Origin: Schmidtea polychroa
Lineage: Eukaryota
Assembly (NCBI GenBank): GCA_044892525.1
Contig: CM097885.1
Span: forward strand, 13,828,001-13,892,000
Reading direction: 5' to 3'
DNA length: 64,000 nt
Shown here piece after piece: positions 11,012 through 39,668 of the stretch; the first letter of the stretch is position 1, and every line of letters starts with the position of its first letter. Made by a program: the position numbers and the translations under genes. Under the pieces are notes generated by a model. The model worked only from the letters and a program-made list of their open reading frames with translations, was not told the DNA's origin and did no database searches.

Positions 11012-11232
11012 TATACAAGTGCCAATATTTTAATAAAATTATATTGCTTTTAAAATGAAATGATATAAATGCACTCTTTTGCTGGGAATTTTATTCATAG
11101 AATATTTACGGTTATAACACAATTTTGATTAAATTGAAAAGTAGCTGATATTGTATTTACTTTATTTCTTTCGCGTAAGATTCCTTTCTGTCTTGATTGA
11201 TGTATTTTCTATACTTATTAAAATAAAAAAAA

Positions 11233-12474
11233 TTATTAATTACATGAAAACTTTTTTATTTAATAAAAACATTTAATTACTTTTAAAAATTATAACTAAA
11301 TTAATATATTTTAAAATTTTAGCATTCAGAATTTAATTTAATAATTTAAAAAATTTTAATAATTGTATTTTTAATTGTATTTAAAATTTTTAATAATTTA
11401 ACACAGCAATCAATGCATACAATATACAAGAAAAAAATTATTTAAAAACATTTAAAATACAAGTATTCGCTACATTCTGCACATTAATTTTCGGATTCAA
11501 TGCCTTTATCAACAACGCCTCACAAATCACACGTTCCCAATAATTATCGAAATTTTTTAATAAAATTTTAAAATCAGACATACCTATTTTAATCTTATAG
11601 CCCCTACTGTGCTCAATAATATGAGTCAAAGCCTTTGGTCTAAAATGTTCTCGAACTCGAATACAGAGATGACGGGAAGTCTCTCCACACCCATTACATG
11701 TAAACTGATAAACGAGATCGGAACACAATTCGACCGGAGTTTTTGACTTATTAATAAACATATTGCGTACTTTCCATGAAGTTGACACTATCCTATAGTT
11801 TAAATTGCCTAACTGCTTTCTTATTTTCACTTTATAATCCTTAAAACGTTCTGAGTACGGCAATACTAACACAAATTTAGACTCATCATCCTTGCTCACA
11901 CTATTTAATTTATTTGACTCATCAGACTCACACACCTCAACATCACACCCAGATTTTCTTAAACATGGATCTTTAGGATTTTTAATAAATTTCTCAACAG
12001 TCTCTTTTACCATAATTAATAAAAAGGATTTTGAATAACCGTTCTTCTTTAACATTTCAACCAATTTGTCAACACTTTTTACTGAATTTTCAAAAGTAGA
12101 AGACAAAGACCATGAACGATAAATCAAACCCTTCACCATATTTCTTTTATGCTTGAATTCACAAAAAATTTCGAATGAAGTATTGAGACCAGTATCAGTT
12201 GGTTTTCTATAAATCTCTGTCTCATAATGTTTCTTTTTGCGGTGTATTATTAAGCAAGTGATGATTTTTTCTCCGTTTCACATGTGAAAACAATATTTTT
12301 ATGTAGACTATTCATATAATGCAAAAACGAATCAACATGCCTCTGATTTTCAAATATAAGAAAATTATCATCCACATACCGTTTATAAACAGTGGGTTTT
12401 ATACATTGGAAAGATGCAATTTTCTTTTCTAAGCTTGCTAAAAAAATGAAGCCATCGTTGGTGCTAAAGGAGAA
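11233..12474 (-). mobile_element. Penelope-like retroelement, 5'-truncated (RT C-terminal half plus GIY-YIG)
   Basis: Minus strand gives SPLAPTMA..., KRYVDDNFLIF...MNSLHKNIVFTCETE, IYRKPTDTG and ORF 11438-12139 ending in the GIY-YIG domain. Frameshifts are present. Confidence 0.93.
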
Positions 12475-12508
12475 ATAAATTTGTTTAAAATCCTTAGTTA
12501 TTATATCC

Positions 12509-12547
12509 CACCTGATGATGACAGGAAAACTGTCGAAATATATCGTG
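12509..12547 (+). ncRNA. Minimal type I hammerhead ribozyme (family A), intact core, in an inverted pLTR piece
   Basis: cac-CTGATGA-t-GACAG-gaaaa-CTGTC-GAAA-tata-TC-gtg. Confidence 0.75.
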
Positions 12548-13434
12548 TTTGAAATTTTAAAAAAACTTTAAACGAAAATGATTGAAGATGAATTGTCAGT
12601 GTAGATTCTGCCAAATCCGTTCGCAAAGATACATTAACGTGGATCGAAATGTCTTTTAGATTATCATTACCAAATCCATCATGAATTAGAACTTCGATTT
12701 TGTTTTTGAGCGTTTCTAACATCTTTTTAATAATCGATTTAAAATACTATTCTGCTTCATTAGCCGGTTCAATCATCGTCTGATCTGTTTAATTAATAAA
12801 TCTTCTTCAGTTTCTTCTATTTCAGAAAATATAGTTTCTGGTTCAATTTCTTCAGGTTTTAAAGGGCTATTGCTTGAAATGTCATCATTAGTTTGAATTT
12901 CCTCGTCTTCGCTGTCTGAGTATTCAATTAAACCTTTCATGTCAATGTTTATTTGCTTATTATCGTTTTCCAATTCTAATTGTTGTGATTCTTAACATTT
13001 TAATTATTATATATTGCAAATAAATTTTCAACGTTCAAAACAATTTGAAGAAATATCTTTAAAAAACTCCTTTCAAACAACAAAACTCTGAAAACATTAA
13101 AAGCATCACATTAAATTCCAGAATATTTCGAATTTCTTTAAAAAATCGAAACACATTTAAAGAAACCTCGCGTCTGTGTGCGCACACAGCGCAGAAATAC
13201 CATCGCAACGCACACACAGACGCCACAACAACTACAGAACCAAACAATGAAATTAAATATTTTACTAGAAATATCGGAAATTTTACCGGACAAAAGAAAT
13301 AATTTTTTATCAAATATTTTCTTAATTTTTAGAAATGTTTGAAATTATATTTAATTTTAATCACGCTATACATAAATATAAATAGTTCTGCAATGAGACT
13401 TTGTATTTACAATAAGTGAACTATTTAATTAAAC

Positions 13435-16715: not shown

Positions 16716-16918
16716 CAGTGCTTTCCAAAGTGGTGGTGCGCGAGACCTACATTGCCGGTTCGTACCGACAAAAAGCTGTAAAAAAGAGTAAAAAATTGCA
16801 CAAGCATGTATTTATATAAATTTCATAAGATATTTAAGACCATATAAAAAGAAAAATAATTAATGCAACAGTAAATTTTTCTAGTGGTCCATTAAAGTGG
16901 AAAGTTTCGGAAGCACAG
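16716..16918. mobile_element. Possible hAT-type MITE
   Basis: CAGTGCTTTCCAAA ... TTTCGGAAGCACAG imperfect TIRs; no clean TSD. Confidence 0.45.
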
Positions 16919-17040
16919 TGTTATTTGTTTTTTAATAAATTTTTTCGTTTGATTAGTTTTACCAACAATCTTTTGCATAATAATTTTATCTTTTGACATA
17001 CTTTTTATTATTTAGTGTAAGTAGGTAGATAGTAGCGTAC

Positions 17041-17083
17041 GGGAACAATTACCCCCCCCCCCCGGGGGGGGGGGTTTGTTCCC
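17041..17083. repeat. Subterminal C12-G11 hairpin (left end)
   Basis: GGGAACAATTA-C12-G11-TTTGTTCCC. Confidence 0.9.
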
Positions 17084-17139
17084 AAATTTTTATTACGCAA
17101 TTGTTCCCAACTCATTTTTTTGCTTTCAGGGATTTTTGG

Positions 17140-18435
17140 TCCAAATTTTTTTTTTATCAGACTATAGTGAGGGGGTCTCGATGGTCCGGGGATTTTCTAT
17201 ACAAAAAATTTTTTTCTATACAAAAATCCGACTACCAATAAAAAAGCATGGAATTTTCACACTATAGTGAGGGGGTCTCGATGGTCCTGGGATTTTCAAT
17301 ACAAAAAAATTTTTTCAATACAAAAAGGCGGTCTTCAATAAAAAAGCATGGAATTTTCATACTATAGTGAGGGGGTCTCGATGGTCCGGGGATTTTCTAT
17401 ACAAAAAATTTTTTTCTATACAAAAATCCGACTACCAATAAAAAAGCCAAGGATTTTTCAGACTATAGTGAGGTGAGTCTCCTTGGTCCTGAGAAATAGG
17501 TGGTCTACACTAAAAAAGCATGGTAATTTAAGGTCTCGGGATATTTTCAATACAAAAGCTGGTCTACACTAAAAAAGCATGGTAATTTAAGGTCTCAGGA
17601 TATTTTCAATACAAAAATCCGACTACCAATAAAAAAACCAAGGATTTTTCAGACTATAGTGAGGTCAGTCTCCTTGGTCCTGAGAAATAGGTGGTCTACA
17701 CTAAAAAGCATGGTAATTTAAGGTCTCAGGATATTTTCAATACAAATAGGTGGTCTACACTAAAAAAGCCAAGGATTTATCACACTATAGTGAGGGGGTC
17801 TCGATGGTCCTGGGATTTTCAATACAAATAAAATTTTTTCAATACAAAAACGATGGTCCTGGGATTTTCAATACAAAAAATTTTTTTCTATACAAAAATC
17901 CGACTATCAATAAAAAAGCATGGAATTTTCAGACTATAGTGAGGGGGTCTCGATGGTCCTGGGATTTTCAATACAAAAATCCGACTACCACTAAAAAAGC
18001 ATGGAATTTTCTAGGTCAATTCAGGTGGGTCTCCTTGGTCCTGGGATTTTCAATACAAAAAAAATTTTTTAATACAAAAATCCGACTATCACTAAAAAAG
18101 CATGGATTTTTCTAGGTCAATTAAGGTGGGTCTCCTTGGTCCTGAGAATTTCAATAGAAAAATCCGACTATCAATAAAAAAGCATGGTAATTTAAGGTCT
18201 CATGATATTTTCAATACAAAAAGGCGGTCTTCAATAAAGAAACATGGTAATTTAAAGTCTCGGGATATTTTCAATACAAAAAGCTGGTCTACACTAAAAA
18301 GCATGGTAATTTAAGGTCTCAGGATATTTTCAATACAAAAAGCTGGTCTACACTAAAAAAGCCAAGGATTTTTCAGACTATAGTGAGGTGAGTCTCCTTG
18401 GTCCTGAGAAATAGGTGGTCTACACTAAAAAACGT
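17140..18435 (+). repeat. Modular subterminal minisatellite, left arm
   Basis: Shuffled ~20-bp modules (GACTATAGTGAGGGGGTCTC, GATGGTCCTGGGATTTTCAATACAAAAA, TCCGACTACCAATAAAAAAGCATGG, GCTGGTCTACACTAAAAAA) in ~60-120 bp units. Mirrored at ~33505-34410. Confidence 0.92.
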
Positions 18436-18439
18436 TGTA

Positions 18440-18990
18440 AATTTTTCAATTAAAGTAAATAATGGTTCTAAAAAATTAAATTATAGTAAATTATGGCTCA
18501 AATTTTTAAATTACAGTAAATTATGGTCCTAAAAATTAAATTACAGTAAATTATGGCTCAAATTTTTAAATTACAGTAAATTATGGTCCTAAAAAATAAA
18601 TTACAGTAAATTATGGCTCAAATTTTTAAATTACAGTAAATTATGGTCCAAATTTTTAAATTAAAGTAAATTATGGTTCTAAAAATTAAATTAAAGTAAA
18701 TTATGGCTCAAATTTTTCAATTACAGTAAATAATGGTCCTAAAAAATTAAATTACAGTAAATTATGGTCTAAATTTTTAAATTAAAGTAAATTATGGTCC
18801 TAAAAATTAAATTAAAGTAAATTATGGTTCTAAATTTTAAATTAAAGTAAATTAAGGTTCTAAAATTTTAAAAATAAGTAATCAATGGTAAAAAAATTTT
18901 AAATAAGTAAATTAAAGTAATAATTTTTAAATTAAGTAATCAATGGTAAAAAATTTTAAATAAGTAAATTAAAGTAAGATTTTAAAATTT
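18440..18990 (+). repeat. ~30-bp AT-rich tandem repeat, left arm
   Basis: (AAATTACAGTAAATTATGGTCCTAAAAATT)n-like array; mirrored at ~32930-33500. Confidence 0.92.
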
Positions 18991-19294
18991 AATTACAAAA
19001 AGTTGAAGGTGTTTGAGAATTGAAATTTTTTAATGAAAATTTTCAATGGTAATTTTTAATGAAAATTTTTATGGAATATTTTTTTTAAGTAATTTTTAAT
19101 AGAAAATTTTATGAAATATTTTTCAATGGTAATTTTTAATGGAAATTTTTATGAAATATTTTTCAATGAAAATTTTTATGGAATATTTTTTTTAAGTAAT
19201 TTTTAATAGAAAATTTTATGAAATATTTTTCAATGGTAATTTTTAATGGAAATTTTTAAGAAATATTTTTCAAAGACAAATTTTAATAATAATT

Positions 19295-20810
19295 CAACAA
19301 CAAATCAACAACTTAGTACCAACAACCAGTAACTTACGAACATGTATTACCAACCAGATACCTACAACCAGTTACCTGATACCAAGTACCAACAACCAAA
19401 ACATGCAACCAACTAGGTACCAAGTACTAACAACTAACTACCACCTACCAAGTACCTACAACCAACTACTAAGTACTAACAACCAAAAACAACCAACTAG
19501 GTACTAGATACCAAGTACTTACAACAAACATCAACCAAGTACTTACTACCAACTACCAAGTACTTACAACTAGTTACTAACAACTAGTTACCTGCTACCA
19601 AGTACTTACAATTAGTTACTAACAACCAGTTACCTGATACCAAGTACCTACAACCAACTACTAAGTACTAACAACAAAAAACAACGAAGTACCTACAACA
19701 AATTACCAGATACCAAGTGCCTACAACTAGTTACTAACAACTAGTTACCTGATACTAAGTACCTACAACCACCTAACAAGTACTAACAACCAAAAACAAG
19801 CAACCAAACAGGTATCAGATACCACCTACTAAGTACCAACAACCAACTAGTTACCAGATACCTACAACTAGATACTAACAACTAGGTCTCAAACACCTAA
19901 ATACTAACAACCAGGTACTAAGCATTAATTACCAACTACTAAGTACCTACAACCTACAACTAGATACTAACAACCAGTTACCTGATACCAAGTACTAACA
20001 ACCGTCAACAACCAGGTACTAAGCCTTATCAACCTACAACTAGTTACTAACAACCAGTTACCAACTACTAAGCATTAATTACCTACAACTAGTTACTAAC
20101 AACTAGATACCAAGTACATACAACCAGACACTAAGCATTATCAACCAAGTACTAACAACTAAATACTAAACACTAACAACCGACAATAACCAGGTACTAA
20201 GCATCATCAACCAACTACTAAGTACCTACAACTAGATACTAACAACCAGTTACCCATTAACTAGCTACAACCAGCACTCAACTAGCTACCAACTACTAAG
20301 TACCTACAACCAAGTACTAACAACTAGATACCTAGTTACTAACAACCCGCTAACAACTAACAACTAGATACCAAGTACCAGTAAATTACGAACATGTATT
20401 AACAACCAGATACCTACAACTAGTTACTAACAACTAGTTACTAACAACTAGTTACCTGATAGCAACCAACTAGCTACCAACTACTAAGTACCTACAACCA
20501 ACATCAACCAGGTACTAAACATTAATTACCAACTACTAAGTACCTACAACCAACTAACAACCACCTACCAAGTACTAAGCATTATCAACCAACTACTAAG
20601 TACCTACAACCAACTAGCTACCACCTACCAAGTACTAACAACCAGTTACCAACTACTAAGCATTAATTACCTACAACTAGTTACTGACAACTAGCTACCA
20701 AGTACATACAACCAGACACTAAGCATTATCAACCAAGTACTAACAACCAAGTACAAGATACCTAGTACTGTCAACTAGATACCAAACACTTACAACCAGA
20801 TGACCACATG
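19295..20810 (+). repeat. A/C-rich shuffled short-word repeat, left arm
   Basis: Words such as ACCAAGTACT, AACAACTAG, ACCTACAAC and AAGCATTA in irregular order; mirrored at ~31145-32565. Confidence 0.92.
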
Positions 20811-21169
20811 AAATTATTGGTTAAATATGAAAATAAGGGTTATAATTAGTTGTTTAGTAAATTATGGTGTAAAATTAAGTAATAAAGCATAAATAGGTAA
20901 ATTAAGGATAAGTAAATTAAAGTTAAAAAATTAAATTAAAGTTAATTAAGGTCCAAATTTTAAAAATAAGTAATCAATGTTCTAAAAAATTAAATTAAAG
21001 TTAAATAAGTAAATTAAAGTAATAATTTTTAAAGAATTTAATTAAAGTAATAATTTTTAAATAAGTAATGTAATAAGTAAATAAAAGTAAGATTTTTAAT
21101 TTTATTATCAAAAGATTGAATAATAACCAACTTTTTTGAGAAATGTAATTTATAATGAAAATTTAAATG

Positions 21170-21170
<1 letters not shown>

Positions 21171-21226
<56 letters not shown>

Positions 21227-21237
21227 TAATAATAATT
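21171..21237. repeat. (AAT)n microsatellite
   Basis: AAT run; a shorter mirror (ATT)n lies at ~30743-30800. Confidence 0.95.
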
Positions 21238-21671
21238 CAACAGTTACCAACAATCGGTTACTGATTATTTTTTAACTAGGTGCTAACAAATACTTACAAC
21301 TAGATACCACGTACTAACTAACTCTCAAACAACCAGATACTTACAACTAACTACTAAATATTCTTCACTGTATTTTATGAAATGATTTTTAAATTAATAT
21401 TTTTTATACAGCTTCTATAATAATTTTAATTACAATCAGTAGAAAAACCTTTTCAAAATGTCTAAATTTAACAAAAATGTTGATTTTCATCAAAAAACCA
21501 CAACTCAACCACTTTAAAACACCACGTGGAATTCAAAATAATTACAATGAAAGACTAATGAATTCTAATTTACAAAACATTCTTCTTTTAAATGATAACT
21601 ACTGACTTATTATTGCAAAGTAAAAATCACATTCAATAAATACTTATTATTGATCAGTTTTATTATATATA

Positions 21672-24600
21672 CTCTGAGTTTATCCGACAGGATGTTTTGA
21701 CGCCCTAAGGGTACAGGTCGTAAGGGTATTAGTCGTAAGGGTACTGGTCGTAAAGGTACTAGTCGTAGGGGTATTGGTAACACTTAACCACAACCTACCC
21801 ATTAACTAGCTACTAAGTACTAACCACTAGGTTTCAAACAACAACTACTAACAACCACCATCAAAACCCATCGAGAAATTAACAAATATCAACCTACAAC
21901 TATATAACAATCAGTAAACAACACTGTACCAACTACCAAATACAAGATACCAACAACTTAGTACCAACAATCAACTAACAACACATAAAAATAATAGCAA
22001 TTAAATACAAAATATTCTTCATCGCATACACTATTTTCTTATCAAAATCTAAAAAGTCAATCAGATACCAACTACCAAGTACCAAGTACTAACAACCAAC
22101 TACCTAGAACCAACAACTATGTACTAACAAATTGATCTTTAAAAGCAAATACTCTTCACTTGAAAAATTGGATGAAAAATTATTTGAACTCAATGCATCA
22201 ATAACTTGGTAAAAATTGATTAAATAATTGTAAAAATTTAAATTATTCAAAATAAATATCATAAAAATTTAATTAATGGACAAGAAAAAATTCTAATCAT
22301 CCAATAAATAAAAAAAAATGCTGATCATTCAAGTTGAATCAACTAAGATAATAAATTAATAAGATAAGATCTAGTAGATAATTGATTAAGATTGAATAAA
22401 TTAATTTAAATAAAATTTAATTTAATTATTTTTGTAAAAGTAATACATGTACTCAAATTGATTGACTGATTTCTCAATATATTCAAAAAAAATCAGTATA
22501 AATTCATTACAATTATCAAAGTCAGCAATCTACAATAAAAATAATTATCATAAAATTCCAAAAGAGACTAGATAACTAATGATAACATCTAATAAACCAG
22601 TAAATTTATTTAAATGACAATAATTGGTATATCCTAGTGAATTCTCCAATTTCTCATTTCCTCCCAAATATATCAATATGTAAAGATTAGTATTGTAATG
22701 ATAAATACTTGTTAAAGATCATATATTTACCTCAAACTAACAAGATTCCTTAAAATCCCTTAAATGACTATATTTCTACCCTTAATTCATATTATTACAA
22801 ATATTTCACTAAAATCATCTAAAAAGCATCAAATTTCCCTGAAATAACTCTATCTTTTAAGATTGATATTTTAATGATAAGTACTTGTTAAAGATCATAT
22901 ATTCCCCTCAGACTAATAAGATTGCTTAAACTCCCCTTTAAATGACTATAATTCTAACTTTAATTCCTATTATCATACATGTTTCACTATTGATAAAACC
23001 GGTTATAATTAACTTTTTGTTAATCACTGTACTCGAAATTTAAAATAAATATAACTGACTAGGTCCCATTAAAAGATTAAATTTATCCATTCAATAAAAT
23101 ATATTTCTTCAAATGATCATTTTTACCAATATTCAACCGATTTAATTACTAATTAAAATCAAGATTTCTTCCAATAAAGATCAATTTTATTTAGTCGATG
23201 TTTTAAGTCCATATTTCTAAACTTTTGTCATTCTCCGCCTAAATAAAGATAAAAATAAATTAAAGTTGATATCAATCCCAATTATCTGTAAAGATTTCAT
23301 TGTCAAAACCAAGTAAATCGATCATTATCCCTACTTAATAAAACATTGTTCTAAATTAATTTACTGTGCATTAATCACAACCTAATAAAACGATATAATT
23401 ATTATTGATTCATAACTGACTAATGTATTGCAATTTCCTTAAAAAACATTGATATTTTACCAACATCACCCTTAAAAAATCATATATTCCCATCGAAACC
23501 CTTCCCTCATTAAAAGCAACCGACTATATCCCCCTTAAAAGATCATATTTTCCCCATCTTAACCGATCTCTCATTAAATCTAACCAACAATATCCCATCT
23601 TAACCGATCTCTCATTAAATCTAACCGACTATATCCCTTTAAAAATCATATATTCCCATCTCTCATTAAATCTAATCGATAATATCCCATCTTATCCGAT
23701 CTCTCAGCAAATATTTCTACCCTTTTAAACATCTATCCGATTATATCCCTTAATTTCCCTAAAGATTCCACCCACTTGAACCCTTTAATATATATCAATC
23801 CTCTTAATATCCTTAGAGAACTTCAAAAAGTATGAATTTTCATAAACTGTTAAAGACACCAGGCATTCTTCCATTGAAATAATTTAGAAGCTAAATAATA
23901 AGAGCCCACTAAAAGATCAAAATTTACTAAAATTTTCTACAAATATTTACCATCAAATACTGGAGATGATATATATTGATTGATCATAATTCTTCATCGA
24001 TTCAACCAATCATTTTCAAGCAATAACAGCAAACTAAATTTCTGTATATCCTACAATAATTATCAAGTAAATTTAAAGTCATTGATAAATATTCTTAGAA
24101 AATTATTGAAAAAAATTATCTAGTCAAATATATTACAAAGTTATCATCAAAAATTTATTCTATCACTTAATTATTAACCTAATTGTCAATGAAATTAATT
24201 TTTATTTAAAAACTATTCAATAAAATACAACTAATTATCAAGAAATTAACTAAATTTATCAATTAAATTTATCACCATTAAAACTTTTAATCAGTCAACA
24301 TGAAATTCTTAGAAAATTATTCAATATCCTCATAAAAATTTATCCTACCACTTCATTATTGAAAAATCTCTAATTATTAACCTCATTGAAAATAATTTTT
24401 ATTTAAAATTAAAAAAAAAAAACAAGTCAATAAAAATACATCCAATTATCAAGAAATTAATTAAATTTATCTTAGAATTAGCATTAAATTATTAAATATT
24501 CATTCAATAAACATGAAATTTGCAAAAATGTTAGAAATCCATGAAAATGATAGATATCTACAAAAATTACGCATATTCACAAAAAAGTACGGAAATTCAC

Positions 24601-24824
24601 AAGAATAATAGAAATTCATAAAAATGATAGAAATTTACTTGAATAAAACCATCAACTCTAAAAATTATCAATGAATGCCTTATACAAATTTGCCTAAATA
24701 ATCATTCAAATAAAAGCATTAAATACCTTTACGACTAATACCCTTGCGACATGTTGAATGTGAGTAGTACCCTTGTGAGCAATACCCATAGGGGGACAGA
24801 ATATTTTGTCGGATAAACTCAGAG
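21672..24824. mobile_element. Nested TIR-bounded unit (~3.15 kb) in left arm
   Basis: TATATA|CTCTGAGTTTATCCGACA ... TGTCGGATAAACTCAGAG|TATATA: 18-bp perfect and ~42-bp imperfect TIRs. 15-bp subterminal tandem repeats (TAAGGGTAYTRGTCG-like, 5 copies) at 21706-21780. Confidence 0.8.
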
Positions 24825-25406
24825 TATATATTAATTAACTCATTCTTCATTGAATTAGTCAAATTATCATAATTTCAATAAAAATTCTAAAGTGGTAAGC
24901 AATGAAAAGACAATTATTCTTTAAACTTTGATAAAATTAACAATGAAGGTGGTAAGAATCTTCATTAAAGTGAGGAAATTATTCATTACTCGATTCAAAT
25001 GGGTGAAAATAATTGGTAGAATAATTCATTAATGTAGGTAGATAATGAGAAGTAGTATAGATAAGATGAAGGTTGATAAGAATGGATGTATTGCAACTAT
25101 TTTCTAAAAATTAACACTTTAATAAAAAAAAACTTTTAAAACAAATATTTGTGGGGATGTTTTAAGTGAATAATTAATCAAAATCGGCGGAATATAAGTA
25201 GAAAATCGGGGTGGGGGTTATAGGCGAATAATTAATGGAAATTCGAGGGGATATAAATGAATAATTAATGGAGAATCGGGGGAATATAGGGATTAAATAG
25301 TGGAGAATAATAGTGAATATAAGTGAGAAGGATACATAATTTAAACTATTTTATTACGTAACAAGCCGTGACTAGTTTATTACATAACAAGCTGTGAATG
25401 GTATTT

Positions 25407-26336
25407 GATTAAGAAATATGGAATAGGTCATTTTTTTTTAATTTTTGACTAAAATAAATTCTAAAATAATTGCAAGATATTACTAAAATGTTTTAATTTG
25501 CATTATGTATTTCAAAAACAATATATATATATATTACCCTTTTCATTCAAAATAAGTTAAATATTCAAATATAAGTCTTAGAAAATACTATCAAAATTAA
25601 ATTTTAAAAATATAAATTTTATAAGTTTTTCAAATTCTCGAATAATGTAAATCAGAAATTTTTTTTTTACTAGATATAGACTTATTGATGGAATAAGACA
25701 ATAGAAATAAAAAGATTTTGTTGTATAAGTACTTGTAATAATAGCTATATATTATTAAGTTTACTATTCTACACTAAATATTTCGAAAACAAATATCATA
25801 ATATGAATTATATTACTCCTTTCAATCAAAGTAAATTAAATGTATCATTCAAATACAATTAAAATTAAATCATCAATTTAATACTTTAATTTAGAAATAT
25901 AAATTTTATAAGTAAATGTAAATAAGAAATTAGTGTATTAGCTGTTATAGACTTTTTAAACTTATTGATTAGGCAGTAGAAAGTTACTATTTTTTTCAAA
26001 AAGTCCTTTAATATTGTATTCTATTTATTATTAAATTTACTATTTTACACTAAAAAATTTCAATTAAGAAAACAAACATCATAATATGAAACTTCAATCA
26101 AAATAAGCTAATACTCAAATATATGTCTTATAAAATACAATCAAAATTAAATACTTCACAAAATTAAAGTAAAGTTTTTTAAATTCTCAGATAAATGTTA
26201 ACAAGATATTAATTTATTTTTCATTATAGACTTTTTATACTTATTATTGGTATTAAACAATAGAATGATATTGAAAATATATACAATTTAAAAATACAAT
26301 TAAAATTAAAGTTATATACCATGTATAATGTTGGTA
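25407..26336. repeat. Central spacer of the foldback, containing ~3 diverged ~275-bp tandem units
   Basis: Units begin near 25540, 25818 and 26092 (TTTCAWTCAAARTAA...) and share TTTACTATTYTACACTAAA and AAAACAAAYATCATAATATGAA. Confidence 0.75.
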
Positions 26337-26943
26337 AAATATCATTCACGGCTTGTTATGTAATAAACTAGTCGCGGCTTGTTACGTAATAAAATAGTTT
26401 AAATTATGTATCCTTCTCACTTATATTCACTATTATTCTCCACTATTTAATCCCTATATTCCCCCGATTCTCCATTAATTATTCATTTATATCCCCTCGA
26501 ATTTCCATTAATTATTCGCCTATAACCCCCACCCCGATTTTCTACTTATATTCCGCCGATTTTGATTAATTATTCACTTAAAACATCCCCACAAATATTT
26601 GTTTTAAAAGTTTTTTTTTATTAAATTTATGAATTTTATGAAATAATTTTAAATAAATTCAATTAATATACTTCCATTCTTATCCACCTTCTTCTTATCT
26701 ATGCCACTTCTCATTATTTACCTCCCATAATCCATTAATGGATTATTCTACCAATTAATTTCACCCATTTGAATCGAGTAATGAATAATTTCCTCACTTT
26801 AATGAAGATTCTTACCACCTTCATTGTTAATTTTATCAAAGTTTAAAGAATAATTCTCTTTACATTGCTTACCACTTTAGAATTTTTATCGAAATTTACG
26901 ATAATTTGACTAATTCAATGATAAATGAGTTAATTAATATATA

Positions 26944-29900
26944 CTCTGAGTTTATCCGACAAAATATTCTGTCCCCCTATGGGTATTGCTCACAAAGGGT
27001 ACTACTCACATTCAACATGTCGTAAGGGTATTAGTCGTAAAGGTATTTAATGTTTTTATTTGAATGATTATTTAGGCAAATGTGTTTAAGGCATTCATTG
27101 ATAATTTTTAGAGTTGATGGTTTTATTCAAGTAAATTTCTATCATTTTTGCGGATTTCTGTACTTTTTTGTGAATATCCGTAATTTTTGTGGATATCTAT
27201 CATTTTTGTGAATTTCCTATTATTTTTGCGAATTGCTATAATTTTTATGAATTTTTATCGTTTTTGTGAATTTCTATCATTTTCATGAATTTTTATCATT
27301 TTTGTGAATTTCTTTGATTTTTGTAAATTTCTATTATTTTTGTGGATTTCATGATTATTGAATGAATATTTAATAATTCAAAGTTAGTTCTAAGATAAAT
27401 TTAATTAATTTCTTGATAATTGGATGTATTTTTAATTTTTAATGAGGTTAATAATTAGAGTTTGTACAATAATCAAGTGGTAGGATAAATTTTTATGAGG
27501 ATATTGAACAATTTTCTAAGAATTTCATGTTGACTGATTAAAAGTTTTAATGGTGATAAATTTAATTGATAAATTTAATTGATAAATTTAATTAATTTCT
27601 TGATAATTAGTGGTATTTTATTGAATAGTTTTTAAATAAAAATTAATTTCAAGTGATAGAATAAATTTTTAATGATAAGTTTGTAATATATTTCACTAAA
27701 TAATTTTTTCAATAATTTTCTAAGAATATTTACTCATTGATGAACTTTAAAAAACATGAGCTAAGAAACTAGTTAACTTTAACAAGGAATTTAAATTTAC
27801 TTGAAAATGATTGTAGAATATACTGAAATTTAGTTTGCTGATAGCGCTTGAAAATGATTGGCTGAATCGATGAAGAATTATGATCAATCAATATATATCA
27901 TCTCCAGTATTTGATGGTATATATTTGTAGAAAATTTAGTGAATTTTGATCTTTTAGTGGGCTCTTATTATTTGTCTGGTTCTATAACAATTAATTAAAA
28001 GTCATATTTTTGAAGTTCTCTGAGGATTTTAAGAGGATTGATATATATTAAAGGGCTCAAGTGGGTGAAATCTTTAGGGAAAATAAGGGATATAATCGGA
28101 TAGATGTTTAAAAGGGTAGAAATATTTGCTGAGAGATCGGATAAGATGGGATATTGTCGGTGAGATTTAATGAGTGATCGGTTAAGATGGGGAAAATATG
28201 ATCTTTTAAGGGGATATAGTCGGTTAGATTTAATGAGTGATCGGTTAAGATGGGGAAAATATGATCTTTTAAGGGGATATAGTCGGTTAGATTTAATGTG
28301 AGATGGGTTAAGATGGGAATATATCATTGTAAGGGAGATATAGTCGATTGACTTTAATGAGGAATGGGTTAAGATGGGAATATAGTCGGTTAAATTTAAT
28401 GAGACATGGGTTAAGATGGGAATATATGATTTTTTTAATGGTGATGTTGGTAAAATATCATTGTTTTAAGGGAAATGTCAATACATTAATCAGTTATGTA
28501 TCAATAATAATTATATCGTTTTATTAGATTGTGATTAATTCATTGTATATTAATTTAGATTTATGTTTTAGAACAATGTCGATTTACTTGGTTTTGACGA
28601 TGAAAACTTTACAGATAAATGGGATTGATATCAACTTTAAATTATTTTTATCTTTATTTAGATGGACAACGACAAAAGTTGACCATTTGAAGAAATATAT
28701 TTTATTGAATGGATAAATTTAATCTTTTAATGGGACCTAGTCAGTTATATTTATTTTAAATTTCGAGTACAGTGATTAACAAAAAGTTAATTATAACCGG
28801 TTTTATCATTAGATTTTATCAATTATTTAGGGTTAATGACCAAATTATTTTACATGTTTTATAATATTCGTGATAATAGGAATTAAAGTCATTTAAAGGG
28901 GATTTTAAGCAATCTTATTAGTCTGACGTAAATATATAACCTTTTAAGGATATTTATCGATAAAATACTAATCTTTAAAGATAGTTATTTCAGGGAAATT
29001 TGATGCTTTTTAGATGATTTTAGTGAAATATTTGTAATAATATGGATTAAGGGTAGAAATATAGTCATTTAAGAGATTTTAAGGAATCTTGTTAGTTTGA
29101 GGTGAATATATAGTCTTTTATGAGTACTTATCTTTAAAATATCAATCTTTAAAGATAGTGTTATTTCAATGAAATTTGATGCTTTTTAGATGATATTTGT
29201 ATTAATATGAATTAAGGATAGAAATGTAGTCATTTAAGGGGATTTTAAGGAATCTTGTTAGTTTGAGGTGAATATATGATCTTTAACAAGTACTTATCAT
29301 TAAAATACCAATCTTTAAATATTGATATATTTAGGGGAAAATGATTCTTTTTAGATGATTTTATTGGAGAATTCACTTGGATATACCAATTATTGTCATT
29401 TAAATGAATTTACTGGTTTGTTAGATGTTATCATTAGTTATCTAGTCTCTTTTGGAATTTAATGATAATTATTTTTATTGTAGATTGCTGACTTTGATAA
29501 TTGTAATGAATTTATACTGATTTTTTGAATATATTGAGAAATCAGTCAATCAATTTGAGTACATGTATTACTTTTAAAAAAATAATTAAATTTAATTTTA
29601 TTTAAATTAATTTATTCAATCTTAATCAATTATCTACTAGATCTTATCTTATTAATTTATTATCTTAGTTGATTCAACTTGAATGATCAGCATTTTTTTT
29701 TATTTATTGGATGATTAGAATTTTTTCTTGTCCATTAATTAAATTTTTATGATATTTATTTTGAATAATTTAATCAATTTTTACCAAGTTATTGATGCCT
29801 TGAGTTCAAATAATTTTTCATCCAATTTTTCAAGTGAAGAGTATTTGCTTTTAAAGATCAATTTTTTAGTACATAGTTGTTGGTTCTAGGTAGTTGGTTG

Positions 29901-30321
29901 TTAGTACTTGGTACTTGGTAGTTGGTATCTGATTGACTTTTTAGATTTTGATAAGAAAATAGTGTATGCGATGAAGAATATTTTGTATTTAATTGCTATT
30001 ATTTTTATGTGTTGTTAGTTGATTGTTGGTACTAAGTTGTTGGTATCTTGTATTTGGTAGTTGGTACAGTGTTGTTTACTGATTGTTATATAGTTGTAGG
30101 TTGATATTTGTTAATTTCTCGATGGGTTTTGATGGTGGTTGTTAGTAATTGTTGTTTGAAACCTAGTGGTTAGTACTTAGTAGCTAGTTAATGGGTAGGT
30201 TGTGGTTAAGTGTTACCAATACCCCTACGACTAGTACCTTTACGACCAGTACCCTTACGACTAATACCCTTACGACCAGTACCCTTAGGGGGTCAAAACA
30301 TCCTGTCGGATAAACTCAGAG
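26944..30321. mobile_element. Nested TIR-bounded unit (~3.38 kb) in right arm
   Basis: Inverted counterpart of 21672-24824 with the same TIRs. Confidence 0.8.
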
Positions 30322-31144
30322 TATATATAATAAAACTGATCAATAATAAGTATTTATTGAATGTGATTTTTACTTTGCAATAATAAGTCAGTAGTTATCA
30401 TTTAAAAGAAGAATGTTTTGTAAATTAGAATTCATTAGTCTTTCATTGTAATTATTTTGAATTCCACGTGGTGTTTTAAAGTGGTTGAGTTGTGGTTTTT
30501 TGATGAAAATCAACATTTTTTGTTAAATTTGAAAAGGTTTTTCTACTGATTGTAATTAAAATTATTATAGAAGATGTATAAAAAATTAATTTAAAAAGCA
30601 TTTCATAAAATACAATGAAGAATATTTAGTAGTTCGTTGTAAGTATCTGGTTGTTTGAGAGTTAGTACGTGGTATCATGTTGAAAGTATTTGTTAGCACC
30701 TAGTTAAAAAATAATCAGTAACCGATTGTTGGTAACTGTTGAATTATTATTATTTTTATTATTATTATTATTTTTATTATTATTATTATTATTATTATTC
30801 CATTTAAATTTTCATTAAAAATTACATTTCTCAAAAAAGTTGGTGGTTATTCAATCTTTTGATAATAAATTTAAAAATCTTACTTTAATTTACTTATTAC
30901 ATTACTTATTTAAAAATTATTACTTTAATTAAATTCTTTAAAAATTATTACTTTAATTTACTTATTTAACTTTAATTTAATTTTTTAGAACATTGATTAC
31001 TTATTTTTAAAATTTGGACCTTAATTAACTTTAATTTACTTATCCTTAATTTACCTATTTATGCTTTACTACTTAATTTTACACCATAATTTACTAAACA
31101 ACTAATTATAACCCTTATTTTCATATTTAACCAATAATTTCATG

Positions 31145-32565
31145 TGGTCATCTGGTTGTAAGTGTTTGGTATCTAGTTGACAGTACTAGGTATCTTGTAC
31201 TTGGTTGTTAGTACTTGGTTGATAATGCTTAGTACCTGGTTGATGTTGGTTGTATGTACTTGGTATCTAGTTGTTAGTAACTAGTAGCTAGTTAATGGGT
31301 AGGTGGTTGTAGGTACTTGGTATCTAGTTGTTAGTATCTAGTTGTAGGTACTTGGTTGATAATGCTTAGTACCTGGTATCTAGTTGTTAGCTGGTTGTTA
31401 GTACTTAGTTGTTGGTTGTAAGTAGTAGGTATCTGGTTGTTAGTTGTTAGCTGGTTGTTGGTTGTTAGTACTTGGTAGCTAGTTGTTAGCTGGTTGTTAG
31501 TACTTAGTTGTTGGTTGTAAGTAGTAGGTATCTGGTTGTTAGTTGTTAGCTGGTTGTAGCTAGTTAATGGGTAGGTGGTTGTAGGTACTTCGTAACTGTT
31601 TGTTAGTATCTAGTTGTAGGTACCTGGTTGATGTTGGTTGTATGTACTTGTTAGGTGGTTTTAGGTACTTGGTTGATAATGCTTAGTACCTAGTTGTTGT
31701 AGGTTGTTAGTACTTGGTATCTAGTACCTGGTTGTTGTTAGTTGTTAGTACTTGGTAGCTAGTTAATAGGTAGGTGGTTGTAGGTACTTGGTATCTAGTT
31801 GTTAGTATCTAGTTGTAGGTTGTAGTTGGTAATTAATGCTTAGTACCTGGTTGATGTTGGTTGTATGTACTTGGTATCTAGTACCTAGTTGGTTGGTTGT
31901 TAGTACTTAGTATTTAGTTGGTTGATAATGCTTAGTACCTGGTTGTTGTTGGTTGTTAGTACTTGGTATCTAGTACCTAGTTGGTTGGTTGTTAGTAACT
32001 AGTTGTAAGTACTTGGTAGCAGGTAACTGGTTGTTAGTATCTAGTTGTAGGTTGTAGGTACTTAGTAGTTAGTAATTAATGCTTAGTACCTGGTTGATGT
32101 TGGTTGTAAGTACTTGGTATCTAGTTGATAGCTGGTTGTTTTTGGTTGTAGCTACTTAGTAGTTGGTTAATAATGCTTAATAACTGGTTGTTGACGGTTG
32201 AGTGCTTGGTAGGTGGTAGCTAGTTGGTTGATTGTTTTTGGTTGTTAGTACTTGGTATCAGGTAACTGGTTGTTAGTATCTAGTTGTAGGTATCTGGTTG
32301 ATGTTGGTTGTAGGTACTTAGTAGTTGGTTGTAGGTACTTAGTAGTTGGTAATTAATGCTTAGTACCTGGTTGTTGTTGGTTGTTAGTACTTGTTAGGTG
32401 GTAGTTAGTTGTTAGCTGGTTGTTGTTGGTTGTTAGTACTTGGTAGGTGGTTGTAGGTTGTAAGTAGTTGGTATCAGGTTGTTAGTAACTAGTTGTAGGT
32501 ATCTGGTTGGTAATACATGTTCGTAAGTTACTGGTTGTTGGTACTAAGTTATTGGTTTTGTTGTT
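31145..32565 (-). repeat. G/T-rich shuffled short-word repeat, right arm
   Basis: Reverse-complement vocabulary of 19295-20810. Confidence 0.92.
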
Positions 32566-32929
32566 GAATTATTATTAAAATTTGTCTTTGAAAAATATTT
32601 CATAAAAATTTTCATTAAAAATTATCTTAAAAATTTCCATCTAAAATTATCATTGAAAAATATTTCATAAAAATTTCCATTAAAAATTACCATTGAAAAA
32701 TAATTCATTAAAATTTCTGTTAAAAATTAACTTAAAAAATATTTCATAAAAATTTTCATTAAAAATTATCTTAAAAATTTCCATCTAAAATTATCATTGG
32801 AAAATATTTCATAAAAATTTCTATTAAAAATTAACTTAAAAAATATTTCATAAAAATTTTCATTAAAAAATTTCAATTCTCAAACACCTTCTATTATTTC
32901 AACTTTTTGTTAATAAATTTTAAAATCTT

Positions 32930-33500
32930 ACTTTAATTTATTTTAATTTACTTATTTAAAAATTATTACTTTAATTTACTTATTTAAAATTTTTTACCAT
33001 TGATTACTTAATTTAAAAATTTGGACCTTAATTAACTTTAATTTAATTTTTTAACTTTAATTTACTTTAATTTAAAAATTTGGACCATTATTTACTTTAA
33101 TTGAAAGATTTGAACCATAATTTACTGTAATTCAATTTTTAGGACCATAATTTACTGTAATTTAATTTTTTAGGACCATTATTTACTTTAATTTAATTTT
33201 TAAAAACCATTAATTACTGTAATTCAAAAATTTGAGCCATAATTTACTGTAATTTAATTTTTAGAACCATAATTTACTTTAATTCAATTTTTAGAACCAT
33301 AATTTACTGTAATTTAATTTTTTAGAACCATAATTTACTTTAATTCAATTTTTAGAACCATTATTTACTTTAATTTAATTTTTTGGACCATAATTTACTG
33401 TAATTTAAAAATTTGAGCCATAATTTACTATAATTTAATTTTTAGAACCATAATTTACTTTAATTTTAAAATTTGGACCATTATTTACTTTAATTGAAAA
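32930..33500 (-). repeat. ~30-bp AT-rich tandem repeat, right arm
   Basis: Reverse complement of the 18440-18990 array. Confidence 0.9.
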
Positions 33501-33504
33501 ATTT

Positions 33505-34410
33505 ACCACGTTTTTAGTGTAGAACACCTTTTTCTCAGGACCAAGGAGACCCACCTCACTATAGTCTGAAAAAATCCTTGGCTTTTTTAGTGTAGACCAG
33601 CTTTTTGTATTGAAAATATCCTGAGACCTTAAATTACCATGCTTTTTTAGTGGTAGTCGGATTTTTGTATTGAAAATATCCTGAGACCTTAAATTACCAC
33701 GTTTTTCTAGTGTAGACCAGCTATTTCTCAGGTCCAAGGAGACTCACCTCACTATAGTCTGAAAAAATCCTTGGCTTTTTTAGTGTAGACCAGCTTTTTG
33801 TATTGAAAATATCCTGAGACCTTAAATTACCATGCTTTTTTAGTGGTAGTCGGATTTTTGTATTGAAAATATCCTGAGACCTTAAATTACCACGTTTTTC
33901 TAGTGTAGACCACCTTTTTCTCAGGACCAAGGAGACCCACCTTAATTTAATTCGAAAAATCCATGCTTTTTTAGTGATAGTCGGATTTTTGTATTGAAAA
34001 TATCCTGAGACCTTAAATTACCATGCTTTTTTTAGTGTAGACCAGCTTTTTGTATTGAAAATATCCTGAGACCTTAAATTACCATGCTTTTTTAGTGTAG
34101 ACCAGCTTTTTGTATTGAAAATATCCTGAGACCTTAAATTACCACGTTTTTCTAGTGTAGACCACCTATTTCTCAGGACCAAGGAGACTCACCTCACTAT
34201 AGTCTGAAAATTCCTTGGCTTTTTTAGTGTAGACCAGCTTTTTGTATTGAAAAAAATTTTTTGTATTGAAAATCCCAGGACCATCGAGACCCCCTCATTA
34301 TAGTCTGAAAATTCTATGCTTTTTTATTGATAGTCGGATTTTTGTATTGAAAAAAATTTTTTGTATTGAAAATCCCAGGACCATCGAGACCCCCTCACTA
34401 TAGTGTGATA
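33505..34410 (-). repeat. Modular subterminal minisatellite, right arm
   Basis: Reverse-complement modules of 17140-18435 with different order and copy number. Confidence 0.92.
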
Positions 34411-34480
34411 AAAAAATAATTTGGACCAAAAATCCCTGAGAGCAAAAAATTTGAGTTGGAACAATTGCGTAATAAAAAGT

Positions 34481-34527
34481 TGGAACAATTTTACCCCCCC
34501 CCCCCCGGGGGGGGGGTAATTGTTCCA
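34481..34527. repeat. Subterminal C13-G10 hairpin (right end)
   Basis: TGGAACAATTTTA-C13-G10-TAATTGTTCCA. Confidence 0.9.
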
Positions 34528-35241
34528 GTGGGCTACTATCTACCTACTAGTGTAACTGAGATTACTGGCATACAGGTTATAGGAAATTTAATACTTAACC
34601 AGCAATTAGCAAATATGAAAAATTTAATCAATATTTTCCACTTTTTTATTATTCCTATTTATGGGATATGAAATAATTAAGTCAAAAAATTATCTTACAA
34701 CTTTATTATTCATACAGGCGAGCTAATTTTAATGTAATTTCTAGTTACAAAACCGCCCTGAATAGACATTATGATGATGAATATTTATTTTTAAATTATA
34801 AACAAGTTTTATGGGGCACTTCTGGAAATGATAGGCATTGACCATTTTCTTTCAATTGATTACTTTTTTTTCTATTCAAGTGATGATATTTCAAGCACAT
34901 TTTTCCTAATAAAATCATGATAGATATTTATAGGAGATGTAAATATCCTATTTTTTGATCTCCAGAAACAAAACTGTCTACATTGTACAATTATAAAAGT
35001 CTCCTTAATTTTTTGCGATTTTGTTTATTGTGAATTTAAAAACGAATAATTGAAAATAAAGAATTTCTTTTCTTTTATTTAGTACTATAGGTCAAAAAAT
35101 TAAAATTTATTGGTAATAAAAAAGTAATGAAATGTTTAAAGAAAACAGATCAAAGGTGAAGAAAAGAATTTTCTGATTACTTATATTTCATGATTAATTT
35201 TGTTTTGAAAATTTAATTCTTATTTGATCGAATTATTTAAA

Positions 35242-35852: not shown

Positions 35853-36960
35853 TTACATATATTTGTTCATGATAGCTTTTTCTCTTATTCTATGTATCAA
35901 AAGAACCTCATTGCAGGGTAAGTCATTATTTTTTGCACATTCTATCACCAAATTAAAAGATTTTATAACATCATCGATGTTTTTATTAGTGTCATCCGGC
36001 ATTTTTTCATTTTCATCAACAAGAGCAGTTTCATTTTCTAATTCTGGATTTTCTTTAAGGTCAAATAAATGATATGCCTCGCTTGTTTCACTTGCCCAAT
36101 CCACAATTTCAGTCTCTGCCAAATTACAATCATTTAATATCGAATTATACCATCTTGCCAGGGGAATATCGTCTTCTTCTGAAAAGTGATCAGAATGAAT
36201 GTTGTATTGAATTGCAATAATGATGTGTTATTTTGGGGAGAAACATAACCTTGAAATTCGGGTTACCATTAAAATTATCCTCAGACCCATGACAAGTTGC
36301 ATTATCTACTAAGAGAAGGGCTTTTACAGGAAGGTTTTTAGATTTCAAGTGTCGAGTTACTAAAGGTATAAATATTTCATTATACCAGTCGCTAAAAAGT
36401 GTATAAGTTTGCCAAGCATTTTTTGATGATTTGTAATATATTAGCAACTCCATATTTTTGAAGCAACGCGGAGATTTCGATTTCCCTATCATCATCATAT
36501 CGAATTTATGCGTACCTGTAGAGTTTACGCTTGACATAATTGTTGCTCGTTCTTTCACTGATTTTCCCAGCAAGGGATTTTTCAAAATTTGAAACATTAG
36601 TTTTGTTGGGTAAGCTTTTATAGACGAGACCAGTTTCGTCGCAATTATATATTTGTTCAGGCAAAAAGCCATTTTCAGCAATATAATTTTGAAATTTTCT
36701 TTTTATACGAATTAGCTAGCTCCACATTGCAAGACATACTCTCCAAGACATACAAACAGACAAAATCCATATACCATGGAGTTTTTTAAATTTCGTTAAC
36801 CATCCACCACTTGCTATAAATGTTTAGGGACCATTATTCAATCTATTTACTTTATATTCGTTACAAATGGCCTTTGTTTTTTTACAATTTTCAATGTCCT
36901 TTAAAAGGAATAGTTTATCTTTAAACGAAATAGAACGTCTTTTTTCTTCTGATTCATATT
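35853..36960 (-). pseudogene. Tigger/Jerky-like transposase pseudogene
   Basis: 'KRRSISFKDKL' (psq-type HTH), 'FIASGGWLTKFKKLHGI' (CENP-B HTH), and 'KERATIMSSVNSTGTHK...IGKSKSPRCFK...AW...ALLLVDNATCH...VMFLP' (DDE_1). Frameshifted. Confidence 0.9.
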
Positions 36961-38143
36961 TTATGGTTGAATTGAAAACAAAAACATATTAATTTATTAA
37001 TTTATTAATTAACAGAAATAACAGAATTCACGTAACTATTCTTCAATATTGGCAGCACAAAACACAAACATATTACAATAACAGAATTTTTTACAATTTA
37101 AAATTACCGTAATATCGCGTGTATTGGCCGCATCCGTAGATAAGCCGCAGTCTAAATTTCTTATAAACATGACTTTTTTATAAGCCGCGACTTATCCATG
37201 GAATTAACATAAAATTTTTCCAAAACATATATATTTATTATAAAATTTTATTTCATTAATTTTTATGTAAATATTTTATTTAAATTGATTAAATTTTAAT
37301 TATTTTGGCATTATTTAAATATTTTATTCTGATTCAATAAATATTTTATTTCTGAATTAAAACCCATCTATCGAATGCATACATTAAGAAAATTATAACC
37401 TGCTAAGAAAAAATTTGAAATCATTTTATATACAGAGAAAAATGGCAGCAGACCTACATCTAGACGTTGATGAGAGTCAAATCAGAAACTGGAGAAAAGA
37501 CAAGGAACTTTTATTGTTTCAAAATCCTGGTACGCTTTCTAGAAGAAAAAAAACCACTTTGGCCCGATTTGGAAACGGAGTTAAAATGTGGATATTGAAC
37601 GAACGGGAAAAAGGTTTACAATTATCACAAACAGTAGTTCGTAATAAAGCTTTGGTTATTGCTGCAAATTTAGACAAAGATAAAGCATCTGAATTCAAAT
37701 CTGGAACTAGTTGGTGTAATAATTTTCTGAAAAGAAACAATTTATCAATGAGAGAAAGAATATCTGTTGGTCAACATTTACCAACTGATTGAGAATTAAA
37801 AGCCGCTGAGTTTTTAAAATACTGAGAAGAAAATAATAAGGGTGTAAAGTTAATAAACTTGAGGAATATGGACGAGGTTCCAGATAGTTTTGACATGCTA
37901 AGTAATCAAACTATGAATGAAAAAGGTTCAAAAAATATAAGAATCATGGGATGAAGTAACTTCAAATTGCATAGTAGGAGGGTTTAATCGATCTCGTATT
38001 ATTCGTAACACAGAACATGGAATTACTGAATCAAAAGAAGTAGAAATGTCCGATGAAATAATTACAGAATCTAGCAATACCGATTATTGTGAAGAATTTG
38101 ATGGTTTTGAATTAAAAAAATATATTGGTTTAATGATATATTA

Positions 38144-39668
38144 CAACGGTGGGCAAATGCGGCTCTTCGTTGAGTAAACTGCGGCTCATTGATAATTGAA
38201 TTCGTGATAATCGAATTCGATTTTTTATTTTGAAATTTTTCACTAAGTTTTGAGAAAAATTTTTTGTTGCAATTGTATTTTCATAAATGTCAAAAATTAA
38301 CGAAACATTGTTTTTCACATTTTACTGCTTTTTAAAATTATTTTGTAGTAGGCGGCGCTTTGTTATAACAACGAGAGAGAAGCATCAAAAATAAATTTAG
38401 TGAATTTTGATTGGTTATTATTTTGTTTGTACAAGATTGCGGTCGTTTGTATATTTTAGTATAGTTTTCTATTCGTGTTTTTTGAAAAATTTGGTAAGAA
38501 GATTTTTTTATGAAGCATTTTAAAATTTTAAACTAATTAAAATTAAATTAATGTCTTTTTATTATTTTGTTTAAATTTCAGCCATATAGTTATTTAAATT
38601 TATTATTATAATGACATCAGAAAACATCAAAAAACGAAAATACAGACAAGAAAATAGAACTTTTCAAGAAGAATGGATAGAAAAGTTTTTTTTTATTGAC
38701 AATAATGGTAAATCGTTGTGTCTTATTTGTAAAGGTACAATTTCCAACTACAAAGTGCAAATGAAACTTGGCTTTCTGACTTAATGTTCCTTACAGACAT
38801 TATGGAACATTTGCAAACATTAAATTTGGCTTTACAAGGAAAAGAAAAGATAATTATTGATTTGTCACAAACGTTATTTAGTTTTGAAGCTAAACTTCGG
38901 CTTTTTGTGAACGATCTTAGGTCGAAAATATTTAATCATTTTCCACGAATAAAAGCTAATATAATTGATATTACAGAAGAAAAAGTAAACGAATACAGTG
39001 AAAAATTGGAAGAATTGCAAGCGGATTTCAAATGTAGGTTTGAAGATTTGAAAAGTTATAAATCTACATTTGCATTTTTTGTGAACCCATTTATTTGTGA
39101 TATTATTGAAGATGGATTTCCAATTTCTGAAGTAATACTTGTTAAAAAAGCGGTTGGGGAATTGGAGTTATTAGATATGAAAGAGGACCAGGCTTTGCAA
39201 ATGCACCATAAATCTACTTCTATAGTTGAATTTTGGAAACTCGTACCAGAGGCAAAATATCCACACTTAAAACAAGCTGCTTGCCGTCTAAATTCAATTT
39301 TTGGTACAACATATTGTTGTGAATCTTTGTACTCCACAATGAAGTTCGTAAAGTCGAAATATCGTTCACAGTTGACCAATCAGCATCTTACAGAATTGCT
39401 GCGAACAGCTTTAACAAAGTATACACCAAATTTCAAAGATTTGATCAAAAGTCTTCGTTAATTCAAGAAATTTTATTACTTTTTATTAATGGATTTTTAT
39501 GTTTGTTACTTAATGTTTGAAATAATTATTTTGTTTTTTTTAATAGCGTTTAAGTCTCTTTAATCAAATTAATGAAATAAAAAAAAATATGTACTTTACT
39601 ATGGTGGCTCTGTAAAAAATAAATTTTCGGAAAATGGCTCTTATTGAACCCATGCGTGCCCACCCTTG
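38144..39668 (+). mobile_element. hAT transposon (GTF2IRD2/Charlie/SPIN-like), internally deleted, copy 1
   Basis: TIRs CAACGGTGGGCA / TGCCCACCCTTG; perfect 8-bp TSD ATATATTA (38136-38143, 39669-39676); 1525 bp. Confidence 0.96.
38611..39461 (+). pseudogene. Internally deleted hAT transposase (N-terminal zinc-finger start fused out of frame to the C-terminal dimerisation region)
   Basis: ATG at 38611 gives MTSENIKKRKYRQENRTFQEEW...LCLICK. Another frame from ~38755 gives WLSDLMFLTDI...IFGTTYCCESLYSTMKFVKSKYRSQLT. Confidence 0.9.

Follow-up and report, generated by a model that had tools for sequence, protein, structure and literature searches.

The window analysed here is a stretch of 64,000 nucleotides (G000:C1:13828001-13892000) in a 781-Mb AT-rich animal genome, and it contains an element of 17,529 bp (17020..34548, no strand assigned) that self-BLAST, searches for open reading frames (ORFs), Pfam, tblastn and counts of its end motif most probably identify as a gene-less, palindromic derivative of Polintons. 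A left arm of 8,387 bp (17020..25406, + strand) and a right arm of 8,212 bp (26337..34548, - strand) lie in inverted orientation around a central loop of 930 bp (25407..26336, no strand), which is asymmetric, contains internal direct repeats, is found family-wide and confers a polarity on the element. By self-BLAST the inverted repeat begins at the tips, 17020 and 34548, and reaches 25406 and 26337 at the loop; identity is 77-92% within its blocks, which are separated by many gaps. The termini are AGTAGGTAGATAGTAGC / GCTACTATCTACCTACT, and self-comparison and the table of target-site duplications (TSDs) place the 6-bp flanking repeat AGTGTA at 17014..17019 on the left and at 34549..34554 on the right (both + strand). 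Two arms around a spacer of ~930 bp, these termini and this duplication had been read from the letters in an earlier note, hereafter the original prediction, and self-BLAST confirms them.

From the ends towards the loop the element is modular, with a GC skew that is mirror-symmetric along its length. The left terminal 17-mer AGTAGGTAGATAGTAGC (17020..17036, + strand) recurs identically at the right end (34532..34548, - strand); it is a putative protein-primed origin and integrase site, according to the role given to such ends in PMC8097293. It is followed by a subterminal C-run/G-run hairpin (17041..17083, + strand; z = -4.3 against shuffles). When 87 ends are compared, the hairpin partner of the end's own stem variant is present in 52, including 27/27 in one type and 8/8 in another, while one stem-variant type of 11 has no matching partner. 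A modular terminal block of about 2.2 kb (17020..19220, + strand) is 73-83% identical to the terminal inverted repeats of coding Polintons, and its right copy (32730..34548, - strand) was likewise recognised by similarity to them. Further inside lies filler, a degenerate tandem array of the ACCAACTAC type (19351..20714, + strand; mirror copy at 31325-32500); altogether tandem arrays make up 4,188 of the 8,387 bp of the left arm, i.e. about half. Nearer to the loop, a segment (23932..24567, + strand) is 72-74% like the non-coding centre of L110, a palindrome of the polymerase half of a coding Polinton, and within it a stretch (24185..24247, + strand) is 77% like the centre of canonical coding copies (E 2e-6).

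The original prediction had seen no credible ORF, and we agree: only three stop-to-stop frames reach 100 aa (121, 156 and 102 aa), none with a Pfam match, and tblastn of 15 Polinton ORFs (8 from the coding Polintons with the same ends, hereafter the helpers, and 7 from a second family) returned nothing at E<=1 on the element. By Pfam and tblastn, pPolB, retrovirus-like integrase, capsid, packaging ATPase and protease have thus left no trace in the element, whereas they are present in its same-end relatives. Hidden genes are ruled out by these searches, and a structured RNA was also rejected, Rfam giving only two miRNA matches at chance level (E 0.15 and 0.59). As for an arm derived from decayed helper genes, none was detected, the likeness being short and non-coding only.

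Genome-wide, the terminal 17-mer has 2,219 exact matches, of which 1,108 are forward and 1,111 reverse; the reversed control has 0, so that the end motif is not due to chance. Since the base preceding GTAGG is A in 60/60 ends, the terminus is AG, in agreement with the 5'-AG...CT-3' ends of Polintons. Of 45 paired elements, 35 show an exact 6-bp TSD and three more a TSD with a single mismatch; among the remaining seven, one can be accommodated by allowing 3 additional bases at the terminus, and another sits in a microsatellite. The window copy can also be read with an 8-bp duplication, but this reading fits 2/45 pairs, the window copy among them: the ambiguity, noticed in the original prediction, is genuine for this copy and is settled by the family in favour of 6 bp. 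The tabulation of paired ends, TSDs and sizes that the prediction had called for is thus dominated by 6-bp TSDs. Two ends carry extra AGT/ACT units, which is what slide-back priming would be expected to leave.

Systematic sampling covered the first 26 Mb of contig C1, a scope that limits the interpretation given below. The first 100 ends gave 36 pairs closer than 50 kb, and the 35 pairs examined (34 plus the window copy) comprise 28 gene-less elements, 6 coding ones and 1 hybrid. Extrapolated from one region, the copy number is about 640 by end pairs and about 830 loci by an inner-arm motif (1,574 matches; 53 clusters per first 100), hence somewhere around 600-850, and the gene-less family would represent roughly 1.3-1.7% of the genome. 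At least 15 sister copies, on several contigs, share the loop at 94-95%, and a sister end-type counts 1,165 ends. The element is therefore a member of a dispersed multi-copy family with independent insertions, as a non-autonomous Polinton derivative should be. At the locus itself, in 4/4 sequencing runs from two studies, a unique short-read contig with the depth of the flank matches up to 17020 and then extends for another 782-1,038 letters. From the point at which the match ends, which is the one predicted by an empty site, we infer such a site in all four runs. All four runs also have about 9 extra bases at window 16788-16791, so that their haplotype differs from the assembled, element-bearing one.

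The original prediction had proposed a search for copies with the same termini that encode pPolB, integrase, ATPase or capsid, and such copies exist: coding Polintons share with the element its ends and its ~2.2-kb terminal block. The helper encodes pPolB (PF03175 matches inside paired ends), an A32 ATPase and an rve integrase with a chromodomain, and has homologues of the capsid (64-77% by tblastn) and of the protease (68%) of the second family, whose capsid ORF matches a cluster with a DJR-like domain (score 0.97, with the family present on 15% of its members) and whose protease matches Peptidase_C5. Six plain coding copies measure 16.6-17.8 kb, with a mean of 17.0 kb (3 read whole, 3 sized from end coordinates), and the helper ATPase is found in at least 150 copies that are 100% alike or nearly so.

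The shared ends, terminal block and size, together with the 6-bp TSDs of the family, therefore bear out the idea of a non-autonomous Polinton derivative. The element is not an autonomous Polinton: it lacks the genes, and its inverted repeats of 8.2-8.4 kb exceed by far both the upper limit of about 1.5 kb usual for Polintons and the 1.5-2.1 kb or so of its coding relatives; it does have the testable features of a non-autonomous derivative. We consider it highly probable that it is a gene-less satellite of the resident Polinton/Maverick family, formed by the mechanism proposed below, and its ends and TSD suggest that it would be mobilised by helper proteins.

Three side observations concern the coding copies. 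The integrase frame of the helper is interrupted in spite of the young age of this family; the second family (L117) has one of 390 aa without interruption. Both families have, beside the ATPase, a small ORF with the TATA-binding-protein domain PF00352 (L089:1988-2500 and L117:1295-1756; E 5e-16 and 5e-14). Besides, two near-identical coding copies of 20.9 kb (G000:C1:6.70 and 6.98 Mb; L091-L093 and L143-L145) have the same flanks and no TSD, and probably represent a segmental duplication.

The helper can itself be palindromic. Inverted twin matches of pPolB turned out to be palindromes of the polymerase half of the helper: the five measured (7.4, 12.6, 13.3, 15.5 and 16.0 kb) all have a 6-bp TSD, the four compared whole have arms 98.7-99.8% alike, and one centre junction has 246 matches, corresponding to about 120 copies. 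Inverted twins of ATPase and integrase were found five times among 150 matches, and two capsid/integrase-half palindromes that were checked (17,433 and 16,510 bp; only ends and centres read) have 6-bp TSDs, one of them with a perfect central hairpin. The hybrid (G000:C1:4717073-4732320; L081/L082) associates a gene-less arm with the integrase/ATPase half, joined within the capsid gene, and its TSD is intact; its junction is single-copy, and 6/6 additional ATPase loci revealed no further hybrid, pPolB being at the expected place. An amplified hybrid or short lineage was rejected, both tested junctions being single-copy. These half palindromes and the hybrid, along with a palindrome from a third family, indicate that giant fold-back is a general habit of Polintons in this genome.

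The third family, with AGTAGTGTG ends and a 6-bp TSD, provides a giant palindrome of 24 kb nested in a gene-less copy (L155:4120 to L157:8345, G000:C1:18.47-18.50 Mb); its arms are 88-96% alike, both carry capsid, phospholipase-A2-like and ATPase ORFs, and one carries a phospholipase-integrase ORF. The loop of a polymerase-half palindrome (L108:8420 to L109:830, G000:C3:32.54 Mb; also L106/L107) consists of a small element that has AGTAGTATGATTGG ends and lies between mirror-image, not direct, repeats, which suggests that fold-back may have been nucleated on the inverted ends of such an insertion; it is this junction that has the 246 matches. Whole-element dimers were sought and rejected: pairs of 27-40 kb are mostly nested insertions or internal tandem amplification, one of them being a four-arm, higher-order palindrome of the gene-less family (36.3 kb, intact 6-bp TSD; G000:C1:12799098-12835428, L151-L154).

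The resemblance between the arms keeps a trace of how such palindromes are made. In five non-repetitive segments compared among 13 elements, substitutions between the arms of one element are <=1.1% in 9/13, against medians of 3.8-5.3% between elements. Shared 31-mers in 22 elements (8 nested, duplicated or one-armed copies excluded, two added from elsewhere on C1) show inner arms more alike than tips in 14 and the reverse in 4. The arms of the window copy differ by 1.5-5.4%. Compared with the copy at G000:C1:13281369, its left arm shows 0-0.2% substitutions against either arm, and most of its loop is equally close; its right arm, itself a mosaic, joins other lineages in a switch zone between about 26,300 and 26,630 (26300..26630, no strand). 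The window copy is thus a recombinant, with left arm and loop from a young sublineage and right arm from others, and the divergence of its arms reflects recombination and not mainly age. In the top 40 of 1,903 candidates no sister of this exact recombinant is above 95%, and none has the combination of arms and loop found in the window copy.

Fold-back is known to occur during the copying of terminal-protein-primed replicons. We propose that the helper pPolB would copy the element from both ends by protein-primed strand displacement, and that the helper integrase would insert it. As each strand is self-complementary, a nascent strand that has passed the loop could fold back and use its own arm as template, so that identity between the arms would extend outward from the loop; through exchange with other molecules the distal portion of one arm would then be substituted, or, in a case such as the window copy, the entire arm. 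The same fold-back on the helper itself would give the polymerase-half and capsid/integrase-half palindromes, a half-genome of about 8.5 kb being thus restored to about 17 kb. The long, repeat-padded, gene-less arm would finally be kept by a size filter such as capsid packaging.

This last step is the weakest one, and we place it just short of an even chance. Taking 17.0 kb as the helper length, and after subtraction of the nested insertions in 4 copies, 16 of the 28 gene-less copies lie within 7% of it and 20 within 75-105%, with 6 below and 2 above, these copies being related and not independent; no same-type end pair is shorter than 7 kb (0/70). The length constraint suggested by the original prediction finds partial support only: copies show a strong size mode at helper length, against which stand the shorter tail, the 13.9-kb sister end-type and the 24-kb palindrome of another family. 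In adenovirus, according to PMC4189039, genomes undergo rearrangement when they are smaller than 75% or larger than 105% of wild type, and a helper-dependent vector of 15 kb enters particles in the form of dimers, direct as well as inverted. Intact vertebrate Mavericks measure 16.9 +/- 1.7 kb according to PMC8097293, which states that Polinton particles have not been observed and argues from this conservation of size. By analogy, capsid packaging of the gene-less element is plausible.

Several observations weigh against the satellite interpretation or its size filter. Under a strict test 7/45 pairs have no recognisable TSD, among them two full-size gene-less copies, so that some recombination must have occurred in the chromosome. 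The helper integrase frame is interrupted at one shared place in all 150 best-scoring copies (L089:3711-4871 and sisters), which makes the helper a doubtful source of integrase. Regarding size, the six short gene-less copies (6/28) measure 8-12 kb, most of them with a TSD, the two long ones (2/28) 33-36 kb, and mini elements of ~300 bp with the same ends exist. For the sister end-type the median is 13.9 kb and 27/34 pairs fall at 12.7-18 kb; polymerase-half palindromes span 7.4 to 16 kb, and the palindromic copy of the third family reaches 24 kb. The p of about 1e-7 for the size test against a uniform null overstates independence, the copies being related.

Length might also be inherited and not selected: any palindrome built from one half of a 17-kb helper necessarily comes back to about 17 kb, its genes would have been replaced by repeats, and it would move within one nucleus and without any capsid. 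This explanation is compatible with the rest of our scheme, and we take it as a serious possibility although we lean against it. It agrees with the weak likeness of the arm to the non-coding centres of coding elements, with the existence of polymerase-half and capsid-half palindromes, and with the short copies that have TSDs and the other size modes of other end-types. On the other hand, the arm contains no trace of helper genes, and its length is nevertheless held by tandem arrays that vary freely among copies; shorter replicons should besides win where no filter operates. The sole short-copy junction tested is single-copy.

The arms might otherwise have been homogenised after insertion, through breakage at the centre followed by arm-to-arm or ectopic gene conversion in the chromosome. 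That identity peaks beside the loop and declines outward would be expected in this case too, and two full-size copies with this gradient have no TSD; the short copies moreover carry asymmetric, centre-spanning deletions, which are typical of chromosomal palindrome instability. However, in several of the loop sisters, dispersed as they are on several contigs, the mirror arm scores exactly like the left arm of the window copy, as if symmetry had been inherited; most step-mosaic copies retain perfect TSDs; and palindromes of duplicated coding halves have clean TSDs, hence were symmetric already at insertion. Conversion in the chromosome as the source of symmetry appears unlikely to us.

Two other explanations hardly survive. 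A foldback element with GTAGG ends that belonged to the cut-and-paste transposons (hAT, P/Galileo, Merlin or Mutator; the original prediction had named hAT, P and Merlin) would fit the modular tandem-repeat arms and the 8-bp reading of the window copy, but it is refuted by the terminal A in 60/60 ends, by an 8-bp TSD in only 2/45 pairs, by same-end coding partners that are all Polintons (the 6 coding copies and the hybrid among 35 pairs) and by hAT sequences that occur as an internal insert or with other ends. An assembly or read fold-back artefact is just as improbable: no read was seen to span the whole element and the runs compared are short-read contigs, yet the arms differ, as had been argued in advance, each matching different real lineages, and the TSD, the conserved asymmetric loop and the hundreds of copies complete the case.

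Extending the satellite interpretation to the whole population, we might regard the Polintons of this genome as linear replicons with reassorting halves filtered by capsid size, canonical copies, both half palindromes and gene-less copies all passing through one helper-sized particle. This view is speculative and we judge it rather unlikely. If true, "gutless" virus genomes would exist in nature in the form of the gene-less family, the two coding palindrome types could complement each other like a two-part virus, and the production and use of virions by animal Polintons would be supported by genomic evidence. Particle formation and the replication mode of animal Polintons are long-standing open questions. 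Nothing that it encodes could explain why a passenger devoid of genes should reach 17 kb, yet most copies do, and the half palindromes are also near that size; the family hence offers an independent and countable test of a size filter, as well as a high-copy target for searches of particles or extrachromosomal DNA. The arm-identity gradient, for its part, is a record of the replication and recombination mechanism across hundreds of copies, and giant palindromes at such a share of the genome are relevant to its stability and its assembly.

The window contains other mobile sequences. A hAT-derived element of 1.5 kb, with an ORF for a dimerisation domain, is present twice (38137-39668 and 58288-59817), the copies being 99.7% identical, and there are fragments of a Tc5/pogo-like transposase (DDE_1 and HTH_Tnp_Tc5 matches) at 35853-37792. 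Dispersed repeat pieces at 3761-4998, 11224-12567 and 50726-51178, with a weak GIY-YIG match and a 279-aa frame, are possibly Penelope-like remnants.

Long modular inverted arms made of tandem repeats are known from the foldback transposons FB, Galileo and TFB1; the element differs from them by its ends, by the length of its TSD and by having a Polinton as partner instead of a cut-and-paste transposase. Terminal-protein-primed genomes also give rise to defective replicons that are palindromic (phi29 in vitro, snap-back genomes); these are short, and it is their shortness that lets them prevail. Fold-back during strand displacement would be the likely origin in both cases, but here the full helper length is kept. 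Non-autonomous Polintons were reportedly described by Kapitonov and Jurka in 2006. Mobile polB-less copies are described in bioRxiv 10.1101/2025.02.07.637071, as are terminal inverted repeats of about 2 kb in which the hexon and protease genes are duplicated; the present element resembles such non-autonomous Polintons in that, judging by shared ends and TSD, it would be mobilised in trans, and differs in being about 95% inverted repeat, non-coding, and accompanied by polymerase-half, capsid-half and hybrid forms. No helper-sized all-arm palindromic Polinton was found in the literature, a search outside which Repbase, supplements and most subscription papers remained, and none of the other genomes compared contains a look-alike by sequence.

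With the Polintons/Mavericks (polintoviruses) of vertebrates, as depicted in PMC8097293, the element has in common a 6-bp TSD, an AGT-type end motif and a size of about 17 kb; it is unlike them in being gene-less, in having inverted repeats that measure 8.2-8.4 kb where those of intact vertebrate copies measure 46-1,447 bp, and in belonging to a family of hundreds of young copies where the vertebrate ones are decayed fossils. Another parallel is offered by the helper-dependent "gutless" adenovirus vectors filled with stuffer DNA, which, according to PMC4189039, likewise consist of terminal cis-signals and non-coding filler only, and whose undersized genomes regain helper size as inverted dimers, a behaviour that we liken to the palindromes found here. 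Those vectors are engineered and their packaging is proven; the element is natural and integrates, and its packaging is at most plausible.

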